NCBI GenBank assembly: GCA_031414955.1
Contig: JANOQV010000036.1
Coordinates: 1-59,469, forward strand
Length of the DNA stretch: 59,469 nucleotides
From: Pedosphaera sp.
Lineage (GTDB): Bacteria > Verrucomicrobiota > Verrucomicrobiia > Limisphaerales > SIBH01
Reading direction: 5' to 3'
A program made the translations under genes and the position numbers. The notes beneath the pieces are model-generated. The model was given only the letters and a program-made list of their open reading frames with translations, ran no database searches and had not been told where the DNA came from. Each line of letters starts with the position of its first letter. Within the stretch, counting starts at the first letter, position 1. Below, piece after piece: positions 16,094 to 59,469 of the stretch.

Positions 16094-16216
16094 GGTGGTG
16101 CCTGTCGCGCTGCGACAGGCCTGCGGCGTTCAGGCGCGGAATCCAGCAACGGCGTTACGCGCCATACTCTCGCCCGCTGTACGCGGGTGGCGTATCGCAG
16201 CGCGACAGGCACCACC
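16094..16216. repeat. REP doublet (REPIN-like), TGTCGCGCTGCGACA family
   Basis: Perfect 22-bp inverted repeat GGTGGTGCCTGTCGCGCTGCGA / TCGCAGCGCGACAGGCACCACC. Confidence 0.75.
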
Positions 16217-22237: not shown

Positions 22238-22356
22238 TCCAAGCACCAAGCACCAAGCTCCAGGGAAGCTCCAAACATCATAATCCAAAATCTGCGCCGG
22301 GCCGTTTGGAGCTTGGAGCTTGGAGCTTATCTGGAGCTTGGTGCTTGGTGCTTGGA
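22238..22356. repeat. inverted heptamer tandem-repeat element (CCAAGCA/CCAAGCT)n...(TTGGWGC)n
   Basis: Perfect 26-bp inverted repeat 22238-22263 / 22331-22356 built from 7-mers, with more 7-mers inside. Confidence 0.85.
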
Positions 22357-34216: not shown

Positions 34217-34425
34217 ACCTGAACTCCGAGGCCGGAAAGGCGGGCCGGCCGCGGGCGGGCCACAACCCTCTTCGGGGCGCGGGTTTTCAACCCGCCGCAC
34301 GCTGCTCCAGCCGGAGATCGAGATGGTTTCTGCAACTTCTGCCCCGGCCACGCGCTACAGGGTTGAAAACCCGCGCGCCGGGTCCAGGCCACTGCCGGGC
34401 TGAGGTTCGACTTCGGAATTCGGGT
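34217..34425. mobile_element. MITE family A (209 bp) carrying a REP doublet
   Basis: TIRs ACCTGAACTCCGAGG / CTTCGGAATTCGGGT (12/15), flanked by TGA (34214-16) and TGA (34426-28); internal GCGCGGGTTTTCAACCC ... GGGTTGAAAACCCGCGC. Confidence 0.7.
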
Positions 34426-44656: not shown

Positions 44657-46492
44657 TTACTCTTCGATGAACTTCAGCACGCGCGACTTCTCGGAGCGCT
44701 TGCGCTGGTTGTCGTCGAGGATCTTCTTGCGCAGGCGCAGGTTCTTGGGCGTGGCTTCCACGTATTCGTCCACGTCGATGTATTCCAGCGCGCGCTCCAG
44801 GCTGAGCTTGAGCGGGGCGTTGAGTTGCGCGCCTTTGCCGTCGCCCTGGGAACGCATGTTGGTCAGGCGCTTCTCCTTCACCGGGTTCACAGGGATGTCG
44901 TTTTCGCGGGCGTTCTCGCCCACGATCATGCCGATGTAAACGGCGTCGCCCGGCTCGATCATCAGGCGACCGCGTTCCTGCACCATGTTCAGCGCGTAGG
45001 TGGTGGCTTCGCCGGTATCCATCGAGACAAGCGAGCCGTTCTTGCGCGCGGCGATTTCGCCGCGGTCCTCGCCGTACTCGTGGAAGAGATGGCTCATCAC
45101 GCCCATGCCCTTGGTGGAGTTCACCAGGTCGGTCTCGAAACCAATCAACCCGCGCATCGGCGCCAACGCCTCGACGGAGACGACGTTGCCGACGTGGTTC
45201 ATGTTCGTGATCTGCGCCTTGCGGTTGGAAAGATTCTCCATGATCGCGCCGAGGTTTTCGCTGGGCACTTCGACGAAGAGCTTCTCGATCGGTTCGAGCG
45301 GATTGCCATCCGGCCCTTTTTTCCAGAGCACTTCCGGGCGGGAGACGAGCACCTCGTGGCCTTCGCGGCGCATCTGCTCGACGAGGATGGCGATTTGCAT
45401 TTCACCCCGGCCGCTGACGGCGAAGATCTTCGGGTCGCTGGTCTGCGCGATGCGCAGGGCGACGTTGGTGCGGATCTCCTTGGTCAGCCGGTCCCAGATG
45501 TGGCGGGCCGTGACGAGCTTGCCGTCCATGCCTGCGAGCGGGCCGTCGTTCACGGCGAACTGCATCTGGATGGTCGGCGGATCAATCGGGATGTAGGGCA
45601 GCGCGCCGCGTTCTTCCGAGTCGCAAATGGTCTCGCCGATGAACACATCCTCGAAACCCGTCAACCCCACGATGTCGCCGGCATGCGCTTCCTGAATCTC
45701 GATGCGCTTCATGCCCTCGAAGTGGAAGATGGCGGTGACCTTGCCCTTGGTGACCCGGCCCTGACCGTGGCGGCAGATGGCGGGATCGCCCAGCTTCACC
45801 TTGCCCTCGTAAATCTTCCCGAAGGCGATACGCCCGAGGTAATCGCTGTAATCGAGGTTCGCCACCAGCACCTGGAATCCCAGGCCGGCCTTGGCCCGCG
45901 GGGGCGGGATGTGCTTCACGATGGCGTCGAAGAGCGGCTCCATGGTCCCGCTGGCGTGCTCGAGTTCGAGCTTGGCGTAGCCGTTCTTGGCCGAGCAGTA
46001 GATGAACGGGAAATCCAGTTGCTCATCCGTGGCCCCGAGCGATTGGAACAGCTCGAACACTTCGTCCAGCACCTTCTTGGGGTTGGCGTTCTCGCGGTCG
46101 ATCTTGTTGATCACCACGATGGGCTTGGCCCCGGCTTCGAGCGCCTTGCGCAGCACGAAGCGCGTCTGGGCCTGCGGGCCTTCCGCCGAATCCACGACGA
46201 GCAGCACGCCGTCGATCATGTTCATGATGCGCTCGACCTCGCCGCCGAAGTCCGCGTGTCCGGGGGTATCGACGATGTTGATGTGGTAATTCTTGTATTT
46301 GAAGGCGGCGTTCTTGGCCCGGATGGTGATGCCCTTTTCCTTCTCCAGATCCATCGAGTCCATGAGGCGTTCCTCGGAGGATTCGTGCTGGTTGGCGCGG
46401 AAGGTTCCGGACTGCTTGAGCAGACAATCGACGAGCGTGGTCTTGCCATGATCGACGTGCGCGATGATGGCGATGTTGCGAATATGTTCCAT
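44657..46492 (-). CDS. typA: translational GTPase TypA/BipA
   Basis: [56 protein letters not shown]. Confidence 0.98.
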
Positions 46493-46593
46493 GATTCAGT
46501 TCTTCTCCAAATTAGAGCCGCGCAGTGTCACCGCCCGCAGGAAAAGGTCAAGGCTGGCGAAGGGTGGAATTGGAAGTGGCGGTCAACCGACGA

Positions 46594-46717
46594 GGTAGAA
46601 CCGGTCGCGCTGCGACCGGTCGCGCCGCGCAGAGCGGCGCAACGACCTGGCGCGACCATCCGGTTTGGCCGCCCGCTGAACGCGGGCTTGTTTTGTCGCA
46701 GCGCGACAAAACCCACC
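46594..46717. repeat. REP doublet, same family as 16094-16216
   Basis: GGTAG..CCGGTCGCGCTGCGACCGG ... TTTTGTCGCAGCGCGACAAAACCCACC. Confidence 0.65.
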
Positions 46718-47057
46718 TTTGCCCGCCACTTTCAATCCCACCCTGGCGAAGAGGTTGGCGAAGAGGAGGTGAGAACGTCCGATTTTTATGGGCCGTAACT
46801 TGGCGGTGCCACTCTCGCCCTCCGCGCCTCGGTCGGCGGGCCGGGGCCGCAAACTGGACCGCAGGTTGATGGTGGCACCGTCATCGGCGCCGGTCGGGCC
46901 GGGCACAGCTCGTCCCCACCACGAAATCAAAGGGGCGACTCGATGGAGACTGGTCATCCCGACTCCGCAAGCTGGCACGGCCCCGCGCAACCGTGGCGGC
47001 ATCTTCGCCCGGATATTCTGTTGCCCGGCGGGGGCGGGTTGATTTCAAATCAACGCC

Positions 47058-47840
47058 ATGAAAATTCACCGCCCATTTTTCGTGTACACCGCCGCGCTGG
47101 CCTTGCTCACGAGTTGTTCCACGGTGCCGCCGCGGCCGACCATCGGCCTCGGGGCCAAACCCCTGCCCGGCGCGGAGGTCATCATCGACGGCACGCGCGA
47201 AACGCTGGACGGGAAGTGGACTTACTGGGCGGGGCCGCGCTTTGCCTCGGCACTGCCCATCAAGTGGAAGGTCGTGGAAGACCCGGTGGACGGCGGCACG
47301 GCGTGGATGACGGATGATCGCGCGGCGGATGGCGGCAAGTACGGCGCGGCCGACATCGTGACCAAGAAGGCCTACCGCGATTTCCGTCTGCACATCGAGT
47401 TCCTGGTCATGAATCCGCGCGGCAACAGCGGCGTGTATCTCCAGAACCGCTACGAGATTCAGATTCAGGAGGGCGACCGCACCAAGCACGGCATGGGCGC
47501 GGCCATCAATGAAAGCGAGTCGCCTTATCATGCCTTCAACGGGCTGGGCAAATGGAACTCCTACGACATCCACTTCCGCGCGGCGCGTTTTCAGGAAGGC
47601 AAGCGCGTGGAGAAGGCGCTGGTCACCATGTATTTCAACGGGATCAAGGTTCACACCAATTTCCCCATCAGCCAGGTCTGGGGCGGGGCGAACTCGGGCG
47701 TCGATGGCGGGAATGACAACGGGCGGGGCGTGACCGATACGCCGCAGGGCTTGAAGCTGCAAGCCGAGGGCCACGACGTGCGTTACCGGAACGCCTGGAT
47801 CAAGGAAGTAAACCTCAAGGACGCGAACACGGATTTTTGA
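47058..47840 (+). CDS. DUF1080 lipoprotein
   Basis: LLTSC lipobox; DFRLHIEF, GNSGVYLQNRYEIQI, WNSYDI, LKLQAEG, YRNAW. Confidence 0.9.
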   Translation: MKIHRPFFVYTAALALLTSCSTVPPRPTIGLGAKPLPGAEVIIDGTRETLDGKWTYWAGPRFASALPIKWKVVEDPVDGGTAWMTDDRAADGGKYGAADIVTKKAYRDFRLHIEFLVMNPRGNSGVYLQNRYEIQIQEGDRTKHGMGAAINESESPYHAFNGLGKWNSYDIHFRAARFQEGKRVEKALVTMYFNGIKVHTNFPISQVWGGANSGVDGGNDNGRGVTDTPQGLKLQAEGHDVRYRNAWIKEVNLKDANTDF

Positions 47841-47853
47841 TCCGGGGCGAATC

Positions 47854-48108
47854 GGCGCGCGGGTTTTCAACCCGCGCTCCGGGGCCAGACCTCTGGCCGG
47901 GCTGAGAGCCTGTCTGAAAAGTCGTTTGGGCGGCGCAGGCCACTGGCCCCGGAGTGCGCCCGTCCTCGGGCGCAGCAACGTGGCCAAGGCGGCCGGTGTG
48001 GATTTCCCCAACGCGCTCGACGTCATCACGTTGCTGCGCCCGAGGACGGGCGCACTCCGGGGCCGAATTTTCAGACCGGCTCTGAGGTTCGACTTCAGAG
48101 TTCGGGAT
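47854..48108. mobile_element. partial MITE family A copy interrupted by MITE B
   Basis: ACCCGCGCTCCGGGGCCAGACCTCTGGCCGGGC-TGA...TGA-GGTTCGACTTCAGAGTTCGGGA aligns to 34369-34425; left TIR not recognisable. Confidence 0.7.
47906..48082. mobile_element. MITE family B (177 bp) carrying a perfect REP doublet
   Basis: TIR GAGCCTGTCTGAAAA / TTTTCAGACCGGCTC (14/15); TGA duplication at 47903-05 and 48083-85; internal perfect 38-bp inverted repeat 47945-47982 / 48027-48064. Confidence 0.88.
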
Positions 48109-48184
48109 TGAAAAACATCACCCGCGCGGCTTCCTCAAACCGCGCGGGCGTGTCCCCAAACCCCAAACAGAACCGGACAGGAAA

Positions 48185-51100
48185 TTACTGAGGCGTCACC
48201 TCGAGGGTTTCCGCGCGAGTGTGCGGGGCGTCCTCCATTTCGTCCACGGTCGGGCCGGGCGGCGGCGGCACGAGGTCTTTCTCGTGGGTCGTGGTGGTGC
48301 TGGTCACGGCTGGAAGCTCGGTGACCTTGTGGAATTTCACGCTCACGATCTTGCTGATGCCGTGCTCCTGCATGGTCACGCCGTAGAGCACGTCGGCCAT
48401 GCCGATGGTGCGCTTGTTGTGGGTGATGATGATGAATTGCGAGTGCTCGATGAAGCGCTGGAGCACGCGGATGAAGCGGTTGATGTTCGACTCGTCGAGC
48501 GGCGCGTCCAGCTCGTCCAGCACGCAGAAGGGGCTGGGCTTCACCTGATAGATGGAGAAGAGCAGGGCGACGGCGGTCATGGTCTGCTCGCCGCCGGAGA
48601 GGAGCGAGATGCTCTGGAGCTGCTTGCCGGGCGGGCGGGCCACGATGTCGATGCCGGATTCGAGCACGTCGTTCTCGTCGGTGAGGATGAGATCGGCTTT
48701 GCCGCCCCCGAAGACCTCGATGAACATGTTGCGGAAGTTGTCCCGGATTTGCAGGAAAGTCTGCATGAACATCTCCTTGGTCTGGGTGTTGATGCGATTG
48801 ATGACCTCGGCCAGCTCGGCCTTGGCCCGGACCAGATCGTCGTACTGCGTGCTGAGGAAGGTGTGGCGCTGCTCGGTCTCCTCGTATTCCTCGATGGCCA
48901 CGAGATTGACCGGGCCCATTTCGTCGATGCGTTTCTGCATCTCGCCGACCTGCGTGGTGATGACGTCCCAATCAGTGCCCGCGCCGCTGGCAGCCATCTC
49001 CTCGGGTGAAAGCGTCTGCACCTTGGCCTGGCCTTCGTCGGCGTAGGTGATGGTGATGCACTCGCTGCGGATGTCGTCGAGGTTGACCTGATACTTCTGC
49101 TGAATGCGCTCGCGCAAATTCTGCACGCTCATGTGGCGCTGGGCGAGTTCGACATCCACGGTGCCGCGCTGCTGCTGGAGCGAAGTGAGGCGCCCGCGCT
49201 GGCCGCGAAGATTTTCCTCACGCGTGGCGACATCGGCATCGACACCGCTCTTTTCCTCGACGAGTTCGGCGGTCTGGGCATTGACGATGTCGCGCTCGTG
49301 CGAGAGGCGTTCGGTCTGGCGGCGGGAGTCTTCGTTCTCGGACTCGGCCTGCTCCTTGCGCTTGAGGCAGGAACTGATCTCGCCGCGACGCTGGAGAGCA
49401 AGCGCGGTGAGTTCGGTGATGCGCTGTTGCAGCGGACCGCGTTGGCTGGTGAACGAGGCGGCAAGCTGCTCATCCGTGGCGAGGGCGACTTTGGATTCGG
49501 TGAGCGCCGCCGTGGCGGTGTCGCGATGCTCGCGGAGGGTGTCGAGGCCGGCGCCGAGTTCGGTCACGAGGTCCTGGGCAGCCTTCTCGCGCAACTCGCT
49601 CTCGGTGACTTGCGCGGCGAGGGCGGCGCGCTTGTCGTTTCCTTCCTTCTCCTGCGAGGCGAGGCTCTGAATTTCGTAAACGACGGTGTCGATCTTCTGG
49701 TGCAGGACGCGCAGGGAGTTTTGCAGCGCCTTAAACTCGCCTTCATGCGTGGCGATAGCGACTTCCTGGGCGCGCAGTTCGGTCTGGGCTTCCTGCAAAC
49801 TGGCCAGCAACGCGGTCTGTTCGCCTTGCAACGCGCCCTTGCCCCGGCTGATTTCACTGACCTGATCCTGCAACGTCGCGAGCTGCGACTGGAGTTCCTT
49901 GATTTGATTCTTGCGCCCGAGGATGGACGACGGCGCCTTGCCATTGTTGCCGTTGGTCGAACCGCCGGTATAGATGCCGTGGCGGCTGAGCATTTCGCCG
50001 CTGCGCGTGACGTAATCAAACGCACCATTGGTCGCGCGCCACGCACTGGTCGCCGCCGCGAGATCGGGAACGATGATGAGTTGGCCCAGCAACGCGTTGA
50101 TGAGCGGACGAATGGAGTCATCGGCCTCGATGACCGTGAGCGCAAGCGTGCCGTCGAGATCTTGCGGCAACTCAGCGCCAGCACCACCGGGGGCGGGCTG
50201 CAAGCCGAGCGAGGCGATGCTGGCCCGGCCCTGCTTGTTTGCGGCGAGACCGGCGAGAATTTCCTGCGCGGACTCCGGCTGCTCGGTGAGCACCAACTGC
50301 AAGTGATGCCCGAGCGCGGATTCGACTGCGGTCACAAATTCATCCGGCACACGAATCTTGTCCGTGAGCGAGCCAAGCACGGACTTGGATTGCTTGAGCG
50401 CCGCCAGCGCGCCGGCGCCGAAACCTTCGTGCGATTCCTGCAACTGTTCGAGCACGTTCAGACGCGACTTCTTCTCCGCCTGCTGCCGCACGACGACATC
50501 CAACTCCTGTCCAATGCGATTCAACTCCGACTGAATCTCCTTCAGTCGCGCCTGGCGCTCTTCGACTGTGCCGCGGCTGGTGGCGACGTTGAGCTTCTCC
50601 GTCTCGACGTTGGCCGCGAACTCCTGCAAGCGCGCTTCGAGCCGCGTGCGTTCTTCCTCGAGCTGAATCTTCTCGGCCGAAAGCTTTTCCAGCCGGATGA
50701 CGTTGCCCTGCTTTTGCAAGTCGAGCGCGTTGATTTCATTGCGCACGCGCGTGAGCTGCTGCGCGGCGGCGAAGGAATCGGACTGCGCGCGGCGCATGGC
50801 GTCCTGCTTGGCGATCAGTTCCTGCTCCACGCCCTGCAAGGCGTCGCGCTTCTGCTGGAGCGCGCGACGATGCTCTTCGAGCGCGGCGTTCACCCCGGTG
50901 AGCTTCTCGGTGACGACGGCGAGTTCTTCCGTGGCGGCGCGGGTGCGCTCCTCGGCTTCGGAGATGTCGCTGAGCGCGCGGGCGTTCTGCTGTTCGAGTT
51001 CGCGCAGGCGTTCCTCGTTGAAATGAATGCGGCTCTCGTGTCGATCACACTGGCCCTTGAGTTCCATGCCCTTCTGCTGCGAAACCGCGATTTGCTCCTC

Positions 51101-53535: not shown

Positions 53536-53867
53536 GGGGAAGAAATCCCATGAGGCGCAACCGGGGGCAAGCCCTCCTTTCACGCGGCCACGATCGAGGA
53601 ACGCGAAGTCGGCGCGGCTCAGTCGCGGTCCGCCCTTCCGAGGCTGGCAGATCAGTGGCTTTCAGACATGATGCTCACATCCGCTTTTGAACGGTCGTGC
53701 GGTGCAAGATGAGGGCCTGGAAGCTTGTGAGCCTGAACTGGAGCCTCCGACCAACGCCCCCCGACATCCCAGCGCGGTTGGCCGAACCGCGCGAAAGCCG
53801 GCTCTTGGGTTTGGCCACAACGCTGCACCGCTCGTGGCGCGCCGCCCGTCAGGAAGCCTCCCGCTGG

Positions 53868-53966
53868 CCCGGGGGCAGCCACGTCCGCGCGCACGACGCC
53901 TTGGGGAAAAACCCAGCACCTCGCCATGCTCCACATTGCTGCGCCCGAGGACGGGCGCACTCCGGG
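53868..53966. repeat. REP doublet of the MITE-B cargo family, without MITE ends
   Basis: Intact arm TGCTGCGCCCGAGGACGGGCGCACTCCGG, spacer TTGGGGAAAAACCC, degraded second arm; no GAGCCTGTCTGAAAA flank. Confidence 0.7.
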
Positions 53967-54050
53967 CCCGCCACGATCAATCCCACCCAGACTCATCGCC
54001 CGACTGGACAATCCGCCGCTGATGCAGCATCGTCCTCGCGACCCAAACTC

Positions 54051-57000
54051 ATGAAACCAAACTCCCCTGCCCTGCTCTCGTGGTGTGCCCTGTGGCTTTG
54101 CGCCAGTCTCATGGCCCGCGCGGCCATCTGCAACCCGGTCGTCCTCCCGGCTCAGGATCAGGGCTGGTATGACTCGAACGGCCACCACGACGCCGGCAAC
54201 GACAACTATTTTTGCGGCGACGGCGTGGCGGCGGCTCCCTTGCGCAACTGGTTCGTCTTCAACATTCCACTGCTCTCGCAACCAGTGACTTCGGCCGAGC
54301 TGCGGGTCAACACCTTCGGCATCAACACTCCGACCGGAAGCGAGACCTATGAGCTGCGCGAGGTGACGACTCCTGCGGGCGGTCTGATGGCTGGCGGCAG
54401 CGGGTTGACCAGCATCTTCGACGATCTGGGCGATGGCCCGGTGTATGGCAGCCAGATCGTCTTGAGCGGTGCCGCCAACAATTACATCACGATTCCGTTG
54501 AACGCCGCGTTTATCTCGAACCTCACGGCGGCGGCAGGCGGAACCATCTCCGTGGGCGGGCAACTGACCTCGCTGGATGGCCTGAACAACAACGAGTATC
54601 TCTTCGGCAGTTCCGGGGCCGGCAGTCCCTCGAACCGCTCGGTTCAGTTGCACCTGACCTATTCCAACGGCAACGCCTTAACCTTCGTGCTCCAACCGAA
54701 CAGCCAATCGGTGATTGCCGGCGGCACGGCCAGTTTCGCGGTGCAGGTTTGCGGCGGAGGATCGCCCTCTTATCAATGGCAACGGTTCGGCACCAATCTG
54801 CCGGGCGCGACCAGCCCGCAGTTGCAAATGCCCGGCGTTTTGACGTCGCAGGCCGGCCCGTATCGCGCGGTGGTGACGGATGGACTGACCACGGTGACGA
54901 GCCTCGTGGCCAACCTCTCGGTCAGCAACGGCGTGGCCCCCACGGGCAGCATCTACATCTGCACCGGGCAGTCGCCGGCGGAGGCCGGATCGACAGTGGG
55001 TTTCTGCGCCCAGATCACCGGCCTGCTCACGCCCACCTGGCAATGGCGGCACAACGGAACCAATCTGCCGGGGCAGGTCAGCCCCAGCCTCTACCTCTAC
55101 GAGGTGCGGACGAATCAGAGTGGCAACTACACGCTGGTCGCGAGCAACCTGGCCGGCGTCTTCACCAGCGCGCCCATCGCCCTGGTCGTGATTCAGATTG
55201 CGCCCTCCGGGTTCATTTATCTGGCGGGCGGATCCGCCACGCCGCCCGCCGAATCGACGGTGACGCTGTGCGCATCCATTTCTGGCGGGCCGTTCCCGGC
55301 GCTCCAGTGGCAGTTCAACAGCACGAACCTGCCGGGCCAGACCGGCTCGTGCCTGTATCTCTCAAATTTGCAATCGAACCAGAGCGGCCTCTACCGGCTG
55401 GTCGCGAGCAACGCGGCCGGCGCGTTCACCAGCGCGCCCATTGCCCTGGCCGTACAGTATTCGGCACCCAGCGGGTACATCTATGTTTCCAACGGTGGAA
55501 CCAATCCCCTGGTCGATTCCTATGTGCTGATCTATTCCTCAATTTCGGCCGCGCCCGCCCCGGTCTATCAGTGGCAGTTGAACGGCACCAACCTGGTGGG
55601 AGAGAACTACTATTACCTCCAGATGTTCAACGTGACGTCGAACCAGAACGGCCTCTACCGGGTGGTCGCGAACAATATCCTGGGCGGCTTCACCAGCGCG
55701 CCCATTGCCTTGACCGTGCGCTACCAGGCGCCCACCGGCAGTATTTATCTGGCCACGGGCACCTCGCCCGCCCCGGCGGGTTCGACCGTGGGTTACTGCT
55801 CCTCGATTGTTGCCGCGCCTGCGGCGGCGCTCCAGTGGCAGCGCGACGGCGTGAATCTGCCGGGCGAGACCAGTTCTTGTCTCTGGCTCTACGGCGTGAC
55901 ATCGAACGAGGCCGGGCTGTACCGGTTGGTGGCGAGCAACACCATAGGCGCATTTACCAGCGCGCCCATCGCCCTGGCGGTCAATTACTTCGCCCCCACC
56001 GGCAGCATTTACGTATCCTACGTCTCGAACCCTGCCCCCGCTGGTTCGTCGCCCTCCCTTTGCAGTTCGATGGTGGGCGCGCCGCCGGCCTCTACTTTCC
56101 AATGGCAGTTCCACGGCACCAACCTGCCGGGAGCAACCAACGGCTGCCTCAATTTGTTCAACGTGACCTCGAACGAGGCCGGCAGCTACCGACTCATCGC
56201 CGGCAACAGCGTCGGCACCGGGACCAGCGCACCCGTCGTGCTGGCGGTGAACTACGCCGCGCCCACGGCGTCGATCTTCCTGAGCTACGGACGCGTGCCC
56301 ACGACCGTCGGCAACGGCGTGACCCTTTGTTCTTATCTGTCTGGAGCGCCCTACCCGGCGGTGCAATGGCAGTTCCACGGCACCAACCTGCCGGGGCAGA
56401 CTGCCTCCTGTCTCTACCTCTCCAACTTGCAGACCAACCAGAGTGGCCCCTACACCATCGTGGCCAGCAACAGCCTCGGGGTCGTGACCAGCGCGGTGGC
56501 GGTGCTCACCGTCCTCCCGCCGCAACCCTTGCTGGCTTACCTCTCGACCGGCCTCTCCCCGCTGCTGGTCGGCAGCTATCATTATCTTTACGCGGAAACA
56601 CAACTCCCCGGTTTGGTCTCGCTCCAGTGGCGCCTCAACGGCGTGGACCTGCCGGGATTCGGGAGCTACGTCTTCTACCTTTACCCGGTGCAGACCAGTT
56701 CCGCCGGCACGTACACTGTGGTGGCCACGACCGCCACTTCCGGCAGCTACACCAGCCCGCCCGTGGTGGTGGAGGTTTATTTCGCGCCGCCCACCTCGGC
56801 CAGCCCGCAGTTCTTCATCGGCCAGGCCGAGGCCCTGCTCGGGGAAGACATCGGCCTCTCCGCCGCCTACGCCGGCAGTCCCGCCGTGATCCAGTGGCGC
56901 TTCAACGGCGCGAACCTGCCCGGCCAGACCAACTCCACCTTGAATCTGCTCGGCCTCACCACCAATCAAGCGGGCCAGTATTCCTTCACCGCCATCAATC

Positions 57001-59219
57001 TTGGCGGGGCCACCACGAGCAGTGTCGTGACGCTGACCGTGGGTTATCAGGCTCCGGTCTTCCAAATGGTTCCTTACGACTTGTCGGTGGCCGAAGGAGC
57101 CACGGCCCGTTTCACCGCGCAGGCCCGGGGTGGCCCGCTGCCCCAGCATTACCTGGAACATGAGGGCGCGAACGTCCCCGTGCCCTACAATTTTGAAGGC
57201 TGTTGTACGGGCGGCTTCAATCTGTTCGACACCACTTTGGCGGACGCGGGCAGTTACCGCATCATCGCCAGCAACTCCCTCGGCATGGCCACCAGCACCG
57301 TGGCCACCCTGACCATCACCCTCGCCGGGCCGCTTGACCGCTGGACCCAGCGCAATCCGCTCCCGCAATCCCAACCACTCCTGGCCGTGGCGCATGGCGC
57401 GGGGCAATTCGTGGCCGTGGGGGAACGCGGCACCATTCTCACCTCGCCCAACGGCGCGAACTGGGCCTTGCAGAATCGCCGCGCCGACGTGCCCCTGCAC
57501 GGCGTGGCCTACGGCAACGGCGTCTTCGTCGCCGTGGGCGACGGCGGCACCATTCTCTCTTCCGCCGACGGCACAAATTGGTCTTATCGATTCACCGCCG
57601 CCGGAACCTTCCTCTACGCCGTGACCCACTCCGAGGACGCCGGCCTCTTCGTGGCCGTCGGGGTCGCGCCGGGCCTGAGTACGCTCGCCATGTATTCCAG
57701 TGACGGGGTGAACTGGACCCGCGTGTCGCTCAACGGCTACTACGCGCAGATGGCCGTGACGTACGGCCACGGCCGGTTCGTCGCCGCAGGCAGTTCGTCA
57801 ATTCTCACCTCCACCGATGGTACCAGTTGGTCTTTGGCCCAGACCGTGACCCGACAGATTGAAAGCCTGACCTATGCGGACGGGCAATACGTGGCCGTGG
57901 GCGATGACGGCACCATGCTCACTTCTTCGGACGGAAGCTCCTGGCAGTCTCTCCCCGCCTTGACCGCGCGCAGATTGCTCGGTGTGGCCCACGGCGCGGG
58001 GCGCTTTGTTGCTGCCGGGGCACGCGGCACCATGCTCACCTCCACCGATGGCTACGTCTGGTCGGCCATTTCATCCGGCACGCCAGATCGTTTGGAGACC
58101 GTGGACTACTCGGGCGGACGCTTCGTGGCCGTGGGAGAAAACGGCACCATCATCACCTCGAACAACGGCCTGGACTGGACGACCCAAAGCCTGGGCGTGA
58201 CGCGCGACCTGGACGGCATGCACGTCGCGAACGGCACGCTCCTCATCGTGGGCAAAGGCGGCAGCATCCTTAGCAGCACCGACGGCACGCATTACACCAC
58301 CCCGGACTCCGGAGTGACGAACGACCTGCACGGTGTCACCTGGGGCGGCGGACTCTGGATCGCGGTGGGTGAACCGGGCGTCGTGCTCACTTCCCCAAAC
58401 GGCGTGGACTGGACCAGCCGCGCGACCGGCACCACCAACTCCCTCAAGGACGCCACCTATGCCGAGGGCCAGTGGATGGTGGTCGGCACTCAGGGCACCA
58501 TCGTGCGCTCGACCGATGGCGTGAACTGGAGCACCACCTTTACCAGCCCAGGCTACGACCTCAACGACGTGGCCTACGGCCACGGGATGTTCCTCGTGGC
58601 CGGCGACGGAAACTACAACCGGAACGGCTCCGTCTTCAAATCCACCGACGGTACGTTCTGGTCGCATGTGAGTTTCTATCCCGGCAAAAACCTGCGCGGC
58701 GTGACCTTCGAGCGCGACCGGTTCCTGTTCACTGGCAACGACGGCTATCTTTTCTGGACGACCAACGGGGTCTTCTTCAATAACAGCTACGTCCCTTACT
58801 ACGCCAACATGCGCGCCGCCACCTGGGCGCACGGCCTGTGGATCGTGGTGGGGAATTACGGCGGCATTTTCACCTCGCCTGATTTGAACACCTGGACCCG
58901 CCGCGCCTCGCGCACCTTCGAGAACCAGCACCAGGTCGCGCTGCTCGGGGGCAAGCTGGTGGTCATCGGTAATCGCGGCGGCGTGCTCCAGTCCGACCGC
59001 TTCATCACCGAAGTCGAGCCGCCGGTCTTCGTGCCCGGCTTCGGCTTCCGCCTGCCCTTCAAGGGCGTGGTCAAGCAAGCGTACCAAATCCAGGCCTCTC
59101 CCAACCTGGTGAACTGGACCAACCTGCTCACTTTCACCAACCTGACCGAGCAAGGCTCCTTTTCCGACCCTGCTTCGCTCGACCAGCCCCGGCGCTTTTA
59201 CCGGCTGGTGCAACCATAA
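54051..59219 (+). CDS. giant secreted protein: N-terminal beta-sandwich, 10 Ig (I-set-like) repeats, beta-propeller (S.DG..W) repeats, C-terminal FYRL module
   Basis: Signal peptide at MKPNS; QW...GTNLPG...G.Y...SN..G..TS repeats; FVAVG..GTI.TS.DG.NW repeats; ends YQIQASPNLVNW...RRFYRLVQP. Confidence 0.9.
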   Translation: MKPNSPALLSWCALWLCASLMARAAICNPVVLPAQDQGWYDSNGHHDAGNDNYFCGDGVAAAPLRNWFVFNIPLLSQPVTSAELRVNTFGINTPTGSETYELREVTTPAGGLMAGGSGLTSIFDDLGDGPVYGSQIVLSGAANNYITIPLNAAFISNLTAAAGGTISVGGQLTSLDGLNNNEYLFGSSGAGSPSNRSVQLHLTYSNGNALTFVLQPNSQSVIAGGTASFAVQVCGGGSPSYQWQRFGTNLPGATSPQLQMPGVLTSQAGPYRAVVTDGLTTVTSLVANLSVSNGVAPTGSIYICTGQSPAEAGSTVGFCAQITGLLTPTWQWRHNGTNLPGQVSPSLYLYEVRTNQSGNYTLVASNLAGVFTSAPIALVVIQIAPSGFIYLAGGSATPPAESTVTLCASISGGPFPALQWQFNSTNLPGQTGSCLYLSNLQSNQSGLYRLVASNAAGAFTSAPIALAVQYSAPSGYIYVSNGGTNPLVDSYVLIYSSISAAPAPVYQWQLNGTNLVGENYYYLQMFNVTSNQNGLYRVVANNILGGFTSAPIALTVRYQAPTGSIYLATGTSPAPAGSTVGYCSSIVAAPAAALQWQRDGVNLPGETSSCLWLYGVTSNEAGLYRLVASNTIGAFTSAPIALAVNYFAPTGSIYVSYVSNPAPAGSSPSLCSSMVGAPPASTFQWQFHGTNLPGATNGCLNLFNVTSNEAGSYRLIAGNSVGTGTSAPVVLAVNYAAPTASIFLSYGRVPTTVGNGVTLCSYLSGAPYPAVQWQFHGTNLPGQTASCLYLSNLQTNQSGPYTIVASNSLGVVTSAVAVLTVLPPQPLLAYLSTGLSPLLVGSYHYLYAETQLPGLVSLQWRLNGVDLPGFGSYVFYLYPVQTSSAGTYTVVATTATSGSYTSPPVVVEVYFAPPTSASPQFFIGQAEALLGEDIGLSAAYAGSPAVIQWRFNGANLPGQTNSTLNLLGLTTNQAGQYSFTAINLGGATTSSVVTLTVGYQAPVFQMVPYDLSVAEGATARFTAQARGGPLPQHYLEHEGANVPVPYNFEGCCTGGFNLFDTTLADAGSYRIIASNSLGMATSTVATLTITLAGPLDRWTQRNPLPQSQPLLAVAHGAGQFVAVGERGTILTSPNGANWALQNRRADVPLHGVAYGNGVFVAVGDGGTILSSADGTNWSYRFTAAGTFLYAVTHSEDAGLFVAVGVAPGLSTLAMYSSDGVNWTRVSLNGYYAQMAVTYGHGRFVAAGSSSILTSTDGTSWSLAQTVTRQIESLTYADGQYVAVGDDGTMLTSSDGSSWQSLPALTARRLLGVAHGAGRFVAAGARGTMLTSTDGYVWSAISSGTPDRLETVDYSGGRFVAVGENGTIITSNNGLDWTTQSLGVTRDLDGMHVANGTLLIVGKGGSILSSTDGTHYTTPDSGVTNDLHGVTWGGGLWIAVGEPGVVLTSPNGVDWTSRATGTTNSLKDATYAEGQWMVVGTQGTIVRSTDGVNWSTTFTSPGYDLNDVAYGHGMFLVAGDGNYNRNGSVFKSTDGTFWSHVSFYPGKNLRGVTFERDRFLFTGNDGYLFWTTNGVFFNNSYVPYYANMRAATWAHGLWIVVGNYGGIFTSPDLNTWTRRASRTFENQHQVALLGGKLVVIGNRGGVLQSDRFITEVEPPVFVPGFGFRLPFKGVVKQAYQIQASPNLVNWTNLLTFTNLTEQGSFSDPASLDQPRRFYRLVQP

Positions 59220-59298: not shown

Positions 59299-59469
59299 GA
59301 GCCTGTCTGAAAAGTCACTGGGGCAGCGAAAGGTGCCAGCCCCGGAGTGCGCCCGTCCCCGGGCGCAGCAACGTGCGAACCTCAGCGGGTATGGGTTTTC
59401 CCCACGCGCTCCACGTCATCACGTGGCTGCGCCCGAGGACGGGCGCACTCCGCCTCCGAATTTTCAGAC
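59299..59469. mobile_element. second MITE family B copy, truncated at the window end
   Basis: TCA then GAGCCTGTCTGAAAAGTC, same REP doublet, ends GAATTTTCAGAC. Confidence 0.85.

Follow-up and report, generated by a model that had tools for sequence, protein, structure and literature searches.

A RAYT-type REPIN inside IS5/IS1031-type MITE ends in a Pedosphaera genome

According to Bertels and Rainey, REPINs and MITEs are distinct classes of element whose duplication rates lie about 1000-fold apart (PMC3116915, bioRxiv 2021.07.10.451892). In the available text, REPIN multiplication is described as unresolved (PMC3116915), and REPIN duplication rates were modelled on the assumption that the RAYT acts (bioRxiv 2021.07.10.451892). 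Work by Di Nocera, Delihas and Nunvar deals with REPs, TIR-flanked Y1 genes and insertion sequences (ISs) that land in REPs; a nesting of REPs inside IS ends is not described in the available parts of it (PMC3733652, PMC3686654). IS1397 and IS621 (PMC3184786, available part) combine an IS with a REP as well, but there the IS lands in the REP. QMITE2 of Coxiella burnetii, a MITE of about 190 bp with TIRs and 7–11-nt duplications, contains a GTAG REP, and its TIR-less short forms resemble REPs (PMC5896051, available text). With QMITE2, the architecture of a REP-bearing MITE is already in print, and the component parts of the elements treated here are of known kinds. MITEs of the IS1031 subgroup of the IS5 family have been described as well, ISLrh being an example (PMC12016507, PMC2516522, available text).

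The element studied here, MITE B, shows the opposite nesting to IS1397 and IS621, since a REP pair lies inside IS ends and is apparently copied along with them. B resembles the IS1031 subgroup in its GAG/GAA-CCTGTCT ends, its TNA target, its 3-bp duplication and a parent of about 0.9 kb encoding a DDE protein of roughly 260 aa, but differs, as far as the available text goes, in being geneless, in carrying a full REP doublet and in lacking an exact duplication at about half of its copies. Its cargo resembles the REPINs of the RAYT literature (Bertels and Rainey, PMC3116915, bioRxiv 2021.07.10.451892; Nunvar, PMC3686654; Di Nocera, PMC3733652; each available in part) in combining tag and hairpin in an inverted doublet of 105–110 nt, in having a matching RAYT flanked by the same REP and, for the copy described below, in lying between convergent genes; unlike the REPINs known from there, 87% of these doublets are wrapped in DDE ends with duplications. 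In the available text on QMITE2 the REP is treated as a truncated MITE, and neither a parent IS nor a RAYT is named (PMC5896051), whereas for B and two further families, A and C, parent ISs of three families were identified, together with a cognate RAYT for the REPIN of B (REPIN-B). These identifications, and a count in which the wrapped form dominates, are what is new here; in the open literature, to which our search was confined (supplements, subscription papers and ISfinder lay outside it), we found no description of REPINs amplified inside IS5, IS1380 or ISKra4 ends. B consists of IS5/IS1031-type ends around a RAYT-type REP doublet and, judging from sequence comparison, was probably copied in trans to about 65 T-N-A sites by an IS5-family DDE transposase, the REPIN being carried along.

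Element B in the window and across the host genome

A preliminary description of the window (the whole stretch of 59,469 nt analysed here) had reported B with 14/15 TIRs, a TGA duplication, a perfect 38-bp inverted REP pair with a GGAG hairpin, and a second copy further downstream. On re-examination, all of these features were found as described (Table 1). The TIRs, GAGCCTGTCTGAAAA and GAGCCGGTCTGAAAA, are identical at 14 of 15 positions, the arms of the perfect inverted repeat span 47945–47982 and 48027–48064, and the REP hairpin has the form GGAG + TGCGCCCG-TCCT-CGGGCGCA. The second copy is 83% identical to the first.

Table 1. Mobile-element features located in the window
Feature	Position	Strand	Remarks
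Intact MITE A copy	34218..34424	.	207 nt; REP-A pair; 5-bp flanks TTGAA/TTGAG; paralogous empty B site 34394-34414
Family C MITE	46562..46743	.	ISKra4-type ends; 7-bp perfect duplication; different hairpin cargo
Host MITE A, degraded left part	47841..47902	+	intact TIR lacking; single fused REP-A hairpin (47857-47875)
Target duplication TGA, left copy	47903..47905	+	
MITE B	47906..48082	.	177 nt; IS5/IS1031-type ends, REPIN cargo
B left TIR (long end)	47906..47920	+	REP tag starts 45 nt in; identical to TIR of the full IS in L096
REP-B left arm	47951..47974	+	GGAG tag + 8-bp hairpin
REP-B right arm	48035..48058	-	paired with left arm = 108-nt REPIN
B right TIR (short end)	48068..48082	-	REP tag starts 24 nt in
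Target duplication TGA, right copy	48083..48085	+	
Host MITE A, right end	48086..48106	+	IS1380-type TIR 48093-48106
Family C remnant with REPIN-B	53860..53987	.	one arm intact (53940-53963); C-type end; limits approximate
Second B copy	59299..59469	+	after TCA; cut by contig end

As RNA, B folds with z = −12.7, and none of 200 shuffles folded equally well; a search for Rfam families at gathering score over positions 46000–49000 gave only sub-threshold hairpin matches and no family for B. The genes on either side of B are convergent, one with PF06439 and the other smc. Contigs from runs X1 and X2, which belong to one study and possibly to the source sample, contain both B junctions with zero differences, and loose contig ends accumulate at 47905 and 48083, as expected for a dispersed element. 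No joint skipping B was found in the assembled contigs of four runs; such contigs drop rare forms, and those of X3 and X4 leave 48118–48279 without cover. An orthologous empty site was likewise not found in 11 congeneric genomes: the gene upstream of B is present over much of its length in seven of them, with other neighbours at those seven loci, and the smc neighbour is kept at none of the seven orthologous loci examined. In genome G007 (contig C27, locus L388), directly behind the orthologue of the window gene 47058–47840, the corresponding position holds an independent element, whose ends are of degenerate B type and whose REP doublet is a different one.

The host genome (6.5 Mb in 313 contigs, 96% complete) contains 129 B TIR ends with a REP behind them, equivalent to about 65 copies, and the multicopy family amounts to 88 merged loci, 41 of which lie near contig ends. 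Copies measure 174–177 nt and hold no transposase gene. At 128 of the 129 ends, the REP tag begins 43–45 nt from one end of the element or 23–25 nt from the other. The REP pair thus sits at one fixed position in B, which fits a single capture and runs counter to separate acquisition at different positions, the outcome that the preliminary description had named as counting against its reading. REPINs might have landed many times in already dispersed empty MITEs, with no co-amplification, and REP-less copies with intact ends do exist in families A (83 nt, C109) and C (69 nt, C296). These and the shortened copies, however, look like internal deletions, and those at C296 and C184:104420 keep fused REP remnants; in B, moreover, spacer subfamilies track flank subfamilies. 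Together with the constant tag position, this refutes independent landings for B, and we consider them next to impossible there.

At the 128 B ends with a full flank, T stands at −3 in 119 and A at −1 in 117, C precedes the TNA in 88, and the TIR/target junction at both B ends is a C–T step. The 39 single-unit copies (41 paired rows minus two long-end pairs) include 19 with an exact 3-bp duplication, a number reached in 0 of 20,000 permutations, so that the target duplication claimed for TIR-flanked copies lies far above chance. Across these 39 copies, the T and A of the flanks are kept at 149 of 156 positions. The middle base is less constant: where both flanks read TNA (32 copies), N differs between them in 13, nine times by a transition (p 0.009), and the N mismatch rate exceeds the decay background of 4–5% found elsewhere. 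Recombination or misjoining are possible sources of the mismatched middle bases; at C267, A is present on one side only. Two other candidates were rejected as sources, namely age, as nearest-copy identity is equal for matched (0.932) and mismatched (0.936) duplications, and RAYT peel-and-paste, as the third-place A is kept and REP-free ISs show mismatches too. B-type copies in genome G037, among 20 regions picked from match lists, have an exact duplication in 4/8 and an agreeing middle base in 7/8 cases, and short elements with the B TIR in other genomes show an exact 3-bp duplication in 22/35. No two complete B copies are identical (maximum pairwise identity 98.3%), so the family gives no sign of present activity.

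B is often located at stop codons: 19 of 55 B ends with TAA or TGA outside close an open frame of at least 100 codons, vs 465 of 2968 at random. In one element with both B TIRs (L384; C100:26473–27237), an ORF-less group II intron (RF00029, 47 bits, cut-off 40) replaces the REP pair. Intron and REP stem share their first 7 nt, a hint that the intron went in behind the hairpin and that a deletion came afterwards.

The ends of B and candidate parent elements

Elements of the IS1031 group have GAACCTGTCT ends and a 3-bp TNA duplication (PMC12016507, available text). The IS1031-like character that had been proposed for the ends of B is borne out by full IS5-family elements with the same TIR. A scan of other genomes for this TIR yielded at least 116 loci. 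One of them, L096, is a 931-bp IS in which both B TIRs are exact and which encodes a 260-aa IS5 transposase (PF13340 and PF01609; NF033580 at 218 bits, cut-off 110); L096 and L097 are one element, and its transposase was matched in 13 among the matches listed for the 116 loci. Similar IS5 elements at L106 (flanks TAA/TAA) and L156 have one end that agrees with the B TIR at 14/15 positions. Genome G037, from another family of the same order, contains an IS of the L096 type (62% identity, ends 15/15 and 14/15) and also 177-nt B-type MITE-REPINs whose TIR is one or two letters off that of its IS. Short elements without a detected tagged REP hairpin (e.g., L071, L075 and L145, among the matches listed) share both the TIR and the TNA duplication, so the ends and the target of B are independent of the REP.

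An autonomous IS with B ends, for which the preliminary description had proposed to look, hence exists in other genomes, but in the host genome TIR scans, inspection of the ends around 15 DDE_Tnp_1 matches and a protein search all failed to reveal an IS whose TIR is exactly that of B. The three IS5 relatives found in the host are 37–41% identical, and the nearest candidate, at C293, has 9 nt of the TIR in common and 37% protein identity. From these distances we infer that the parent IS and mover of B was lost from this genome or left unassembled. The long flank of B may itself be derived from the 3′ end of such an IS: GGAG occurs at offset 47 in 8/11 IS 3′ ends vs 44–45 in B, and only 3 of 300 shuffles score as high as the alignment of the B long flank with the IS 3′ end when the first 4 nt are left out. 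We regard this similarity as only suggestive.

The C–T step at both junctions, the C-TNA-G bias and the 13 mismatched duplications would also fit movement of B by a RAYT alone, in which case the apparent TIRs would be REPIN flanks and the TNA repeat would stem from cuts between C and T at CTNAG. Yet an IS5 element that has a DDE gene bears this TIR letter for letter, REP-free elements bear it too, REPINs adjacent to the RAYT have no such ends, and a CT target would leave the third base free, at odds with the conserved T and A of the flanks. Since REP-free ISs share the C–T junction, RAYT-only movement is unlikely; in view of all these points it appears largely refuted, and we assign it a very low probability.

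The full IS5 elements at L096 (1597–2541) and L156 have flanks that are complementary rather than duplicated (TTA/TAA and TAA/TTA, respectively). At L096, inverted symmetry continues 7 nt past the TIR.

REPIN cargo, RAYT genes and conserved arms

Nearly all REP-B doublets (63/64) are 105–110 nt long and consist of tag and hairpin, inverted at fixed spacing. The host genome has 12 Y1 transposase matches. The one on contig C262 is a RAYT gene (PF01797; NF047646 at 81.4 bits, just above the cut-off of 80), and four free REPIN-B doublets lie on this contig, on both sides of the gene, three of them within about 0.8 kb of it. Because this doublet also occurs beside a RAYT gene of the host with no IS ends around it, the core of B can be regarded as a genuine RAYT-type REPIN, in agreement with the cargo assignment made initially. 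The term REPIN applies to this core only; B as a whole is a MITE. At 826–871 of locus L010, beside the RAYT gene, an Rfam Acido-Lenti-1 match (54.8 bits) adjoins a free REPIN-B.

Altogether, 70 REPIN-B doublets were counted in the host genome: 47 reside in B, 14 in C (one of these, at C142, relabelled by eye from its flank) and nine are free. With 61 of the 70 doublets (87%) wrapped in TIRs, the hallmark of a REPIN, standing alone without IS ends or duplication, is absent from most of this family. Among the 176 single arms, the upstream end is of B type in 121 and of C type in 24, no such end is present in 25, and six lie at a contig edge. Because most members of one REPIN family are held in IS ends with target duplications, REPIN copy number can reflect MITE bursts, and it suggests that REP surveys should inspect 20–70 nt beyond the tags for TIRs. 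In an unrooted tree of the spacer (61 columns), the C doublets form one side of a branch (91/93) and only one long-branched free copy breaks B; a single B clade is compatible with the AU test (p 0.47). This topology fits one capture per end type followed by amplification.

The excess of wrapped over free doublets would also be expected if the direction were reversed, i.e., if the REP doublet were the interior of a MITE and the free REPINs were truncated MITEs, the reading given for QMITE2 (PMC5896051, section 8, available text). Against this stand the free doublets flanking the RAYT gene, the position of eight of the nine free doublets outside B in the unrooted tree, the presence of REPIN-B in two unrelated TIR classes and the finding that each TIR class carries several unrelated REPs. 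We therefore consider a MITE origin of the REP quite improbable.

Among 37 B copies, columns that vary across subfamilies number 1/24 and 0/24 in the two REP arms, vs 24/30, 39/60 and 6/9 in flanks and spacer. The arms are as invariant across subfamilies as the TIRs, and private (singleton) changes are spread evenly over the regions. Such invariance is not predicted for passive cargo. It could mean that the arms are still read, by a RAYT or by the host, or else that transposition benefits from the hairpin. The first option would extend the reading of B as an IS5-mobilised element, in that the IS5 enzyme would move B while a RAYT still acts on the embedded REPs through binding, nicking or host-level selection and the arms are kept. 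Conservation of the arm sequence across subfamilies, and not only of its pairing, with singleton changes even, is consistent with this, as are a REP-B sequence identical in G037 and G024 and a single change, GGAGC, shared by most wrapped and free arms in G001. RAYTs cut between C and T (PMC8266576, available text), the step seen at both B junctions and, with C preceding the TNA, at many of the targets. REP-less full IS elements, however, show the same junction and also mismatched flanks (L096, L156), G001 (81% complete) yielded no close RAYT homologue, and no REP-B was present near nine RAYT homologue loci checked in relatives. We hold this extension to be possible but doubtful.

The second option attributes the success of the element to structure rather than to REP identity: a long palindrome may help an element of less than 200 bp to join its ends, or may render it harmless by acting as a terminator, so that IS ends that capture a hairpin of any kind outdo those without one. 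Like the first, it is compatible with IS5-mediated copying of B. Within a set made up solely of short B-TIR elements from other genomes, strong interior folding (z of −2 or lower) with unrelated cargos was found in 30 of 35, and palindromes are also held by the A, C, D and IS4-type MITEs of the host. But the remaining five elements are without strong structure, and the subfamilies show essentially no compensatory changes in the arms, although these should arise if nothing but pairing counted. Like the first option, we regard this one as possible but doubtful.

The preferred reading, copying of B by an IS5-family enzyme, would involve the following steps. The REP doublet would have been captured once, ancestrally, by IS5-type ends, possibly through fusion of an IS 3′ end to a REP at the shared GGAG. 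An IS5-family transposase acting in trans would recognise the 15-bp ends and insert B at TNA, and amplification by this DDE enzyme would have taken the REPIN along as a passenger, before the parent IS disappeared from the host or escaped assembly. Hitch-hiking of REPINs in non-autonomous DDE elements, as first put forward for this locus, is thus supported, at the level of sequence, by the fixed cargo position, the duplications and the IS5 ends. REPs are likely to have a second route of spread, by insertion-sequence enzymes rather than by their own REP enzyme. All parts for a direct test are named: a compact donor, a candidate IS5 enzyme and a candidate RAYT.

Element A, family C and further wrapped doublets

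Element A is a MITE of 204–210 nt whose REP pair differs from that of B. Its TIR is that of a frameshifted IS1380-family element at C143:26291–27811, whose transposase matches PF13701 at 80 bits (cut-off 34.7) and, for the longer of its two frameshifted parts, NF033539 at 171.5, below the cut-off of 180. Duplications of 4–5 bp are typical of the IS1380 family. Counted from CCC, the duplication of A is 5 bp, perfect in 10 of 19 paired rows and with one mismatch in three more, and not 3 bp as originally stated; the C143 element itself is without a 5-bp duplication. The A end lies near 28 of 71 REP-A arms, most arms thus not being scored as wrapped, and a sister REP at C94 suggests a cognate RAYT for REP-A.

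The preliminary description had B nested in A, with a REPIN in each. B does interrupt a copy of A, and both families do carry REPINs, but the host copy (47841–48106) is degraded: its left TIR is missing and its REP pair is fused to one hairpin. It ends at 48106, two nucleotides short of the end first assigned (48108). The empty site reported at 34394–34414 matches the motif exactly but is paralogous, belonging to another A copy, and not orthologous. Copies of A at C36, C218 and C267, and a shortened one at C153, all hold B at one and the same GC-TNA-GG site. After its amplification, one B copy would then have landed at such a site in an IS1380-type MITE with its own REP pair.

Family C shares its TIR with 1.4-kb ISKra4 elements at L230, L232, L233 and L260, four of the 116 metagenome loci listed (NF033572 at 205.8 for L233, vs a cut-off of 205), and with a transposase end at C145 of the host. 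Its duplication is 8–9 bp, and 8 of 11 paired rows of the REPIN-B type show no more than a single mismatch; besides REPIN-B, its cargo includes several other hairpins. In G024 and G037, too, REPIN-B is flanked by C-like ends. IS256 was rejected as the parent of C, as the examined stretches of two IS256 matches in the host had no C-type end; a pattern search of 251 genomes found no full C-ended element among 30 loci. A and C resemble IS1380-family (ISEcp1-like) and ISKra4-family elements in their shared TIRs and in duplications of 5 bp and 8–9 bp, respectively, but differ from them in being non-coding and in carrying REP or other hairpin cargo. The capture of REPIN-B by ISKra4-type ends was likely independent of that by the ends of B.

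Two 162-nt elements have a fourth end type, 9-bp duplications and another REP pair, and unrelated GTAG, GGAG and GTGG doublets lie between B TIRs in records from other Verrucomicrobiota and from Chloroflexota (among the matches listed). One could go further and suppose that, in this lineage, DDE enzymes account for most REPIN amplification although a RAYT still governs the elements, that IS5, IS1380, ISKra4 and the fourth end type have each captured REP doublets, and that the composite is served by two unrelated transposases, with DDE ends for copying and the RAYT for keeping or using the hairpins. We consider this broader view unlikely; if true, it would amount to a three-way symbiosis through which REPINs could multiply at a pace well beyond what is assumed for the RAYT route.

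Other repeats were noted in passing. At 22238–22356, 52-nt inverted arms consist of simple repeats of 6–7 nt, and similar repeats fill host MITEs that have IS4-like ends and duplications of about 10 bp; 40-nt inverted arms at 16094–16216 hold another REP-like doublet. About 46 exact copies of two GGGTGCATC-type ends occur in the host, almost none of them paired within 2.3 kb, and probably belong to an unassembled multicopy IS. The frame 53697–59219 encodes a very large Ig-domain protein with arrays of 264-nt and 117-nt repeats; the C-type remnant lies near the start of this frame, and the true start is probably downstream.
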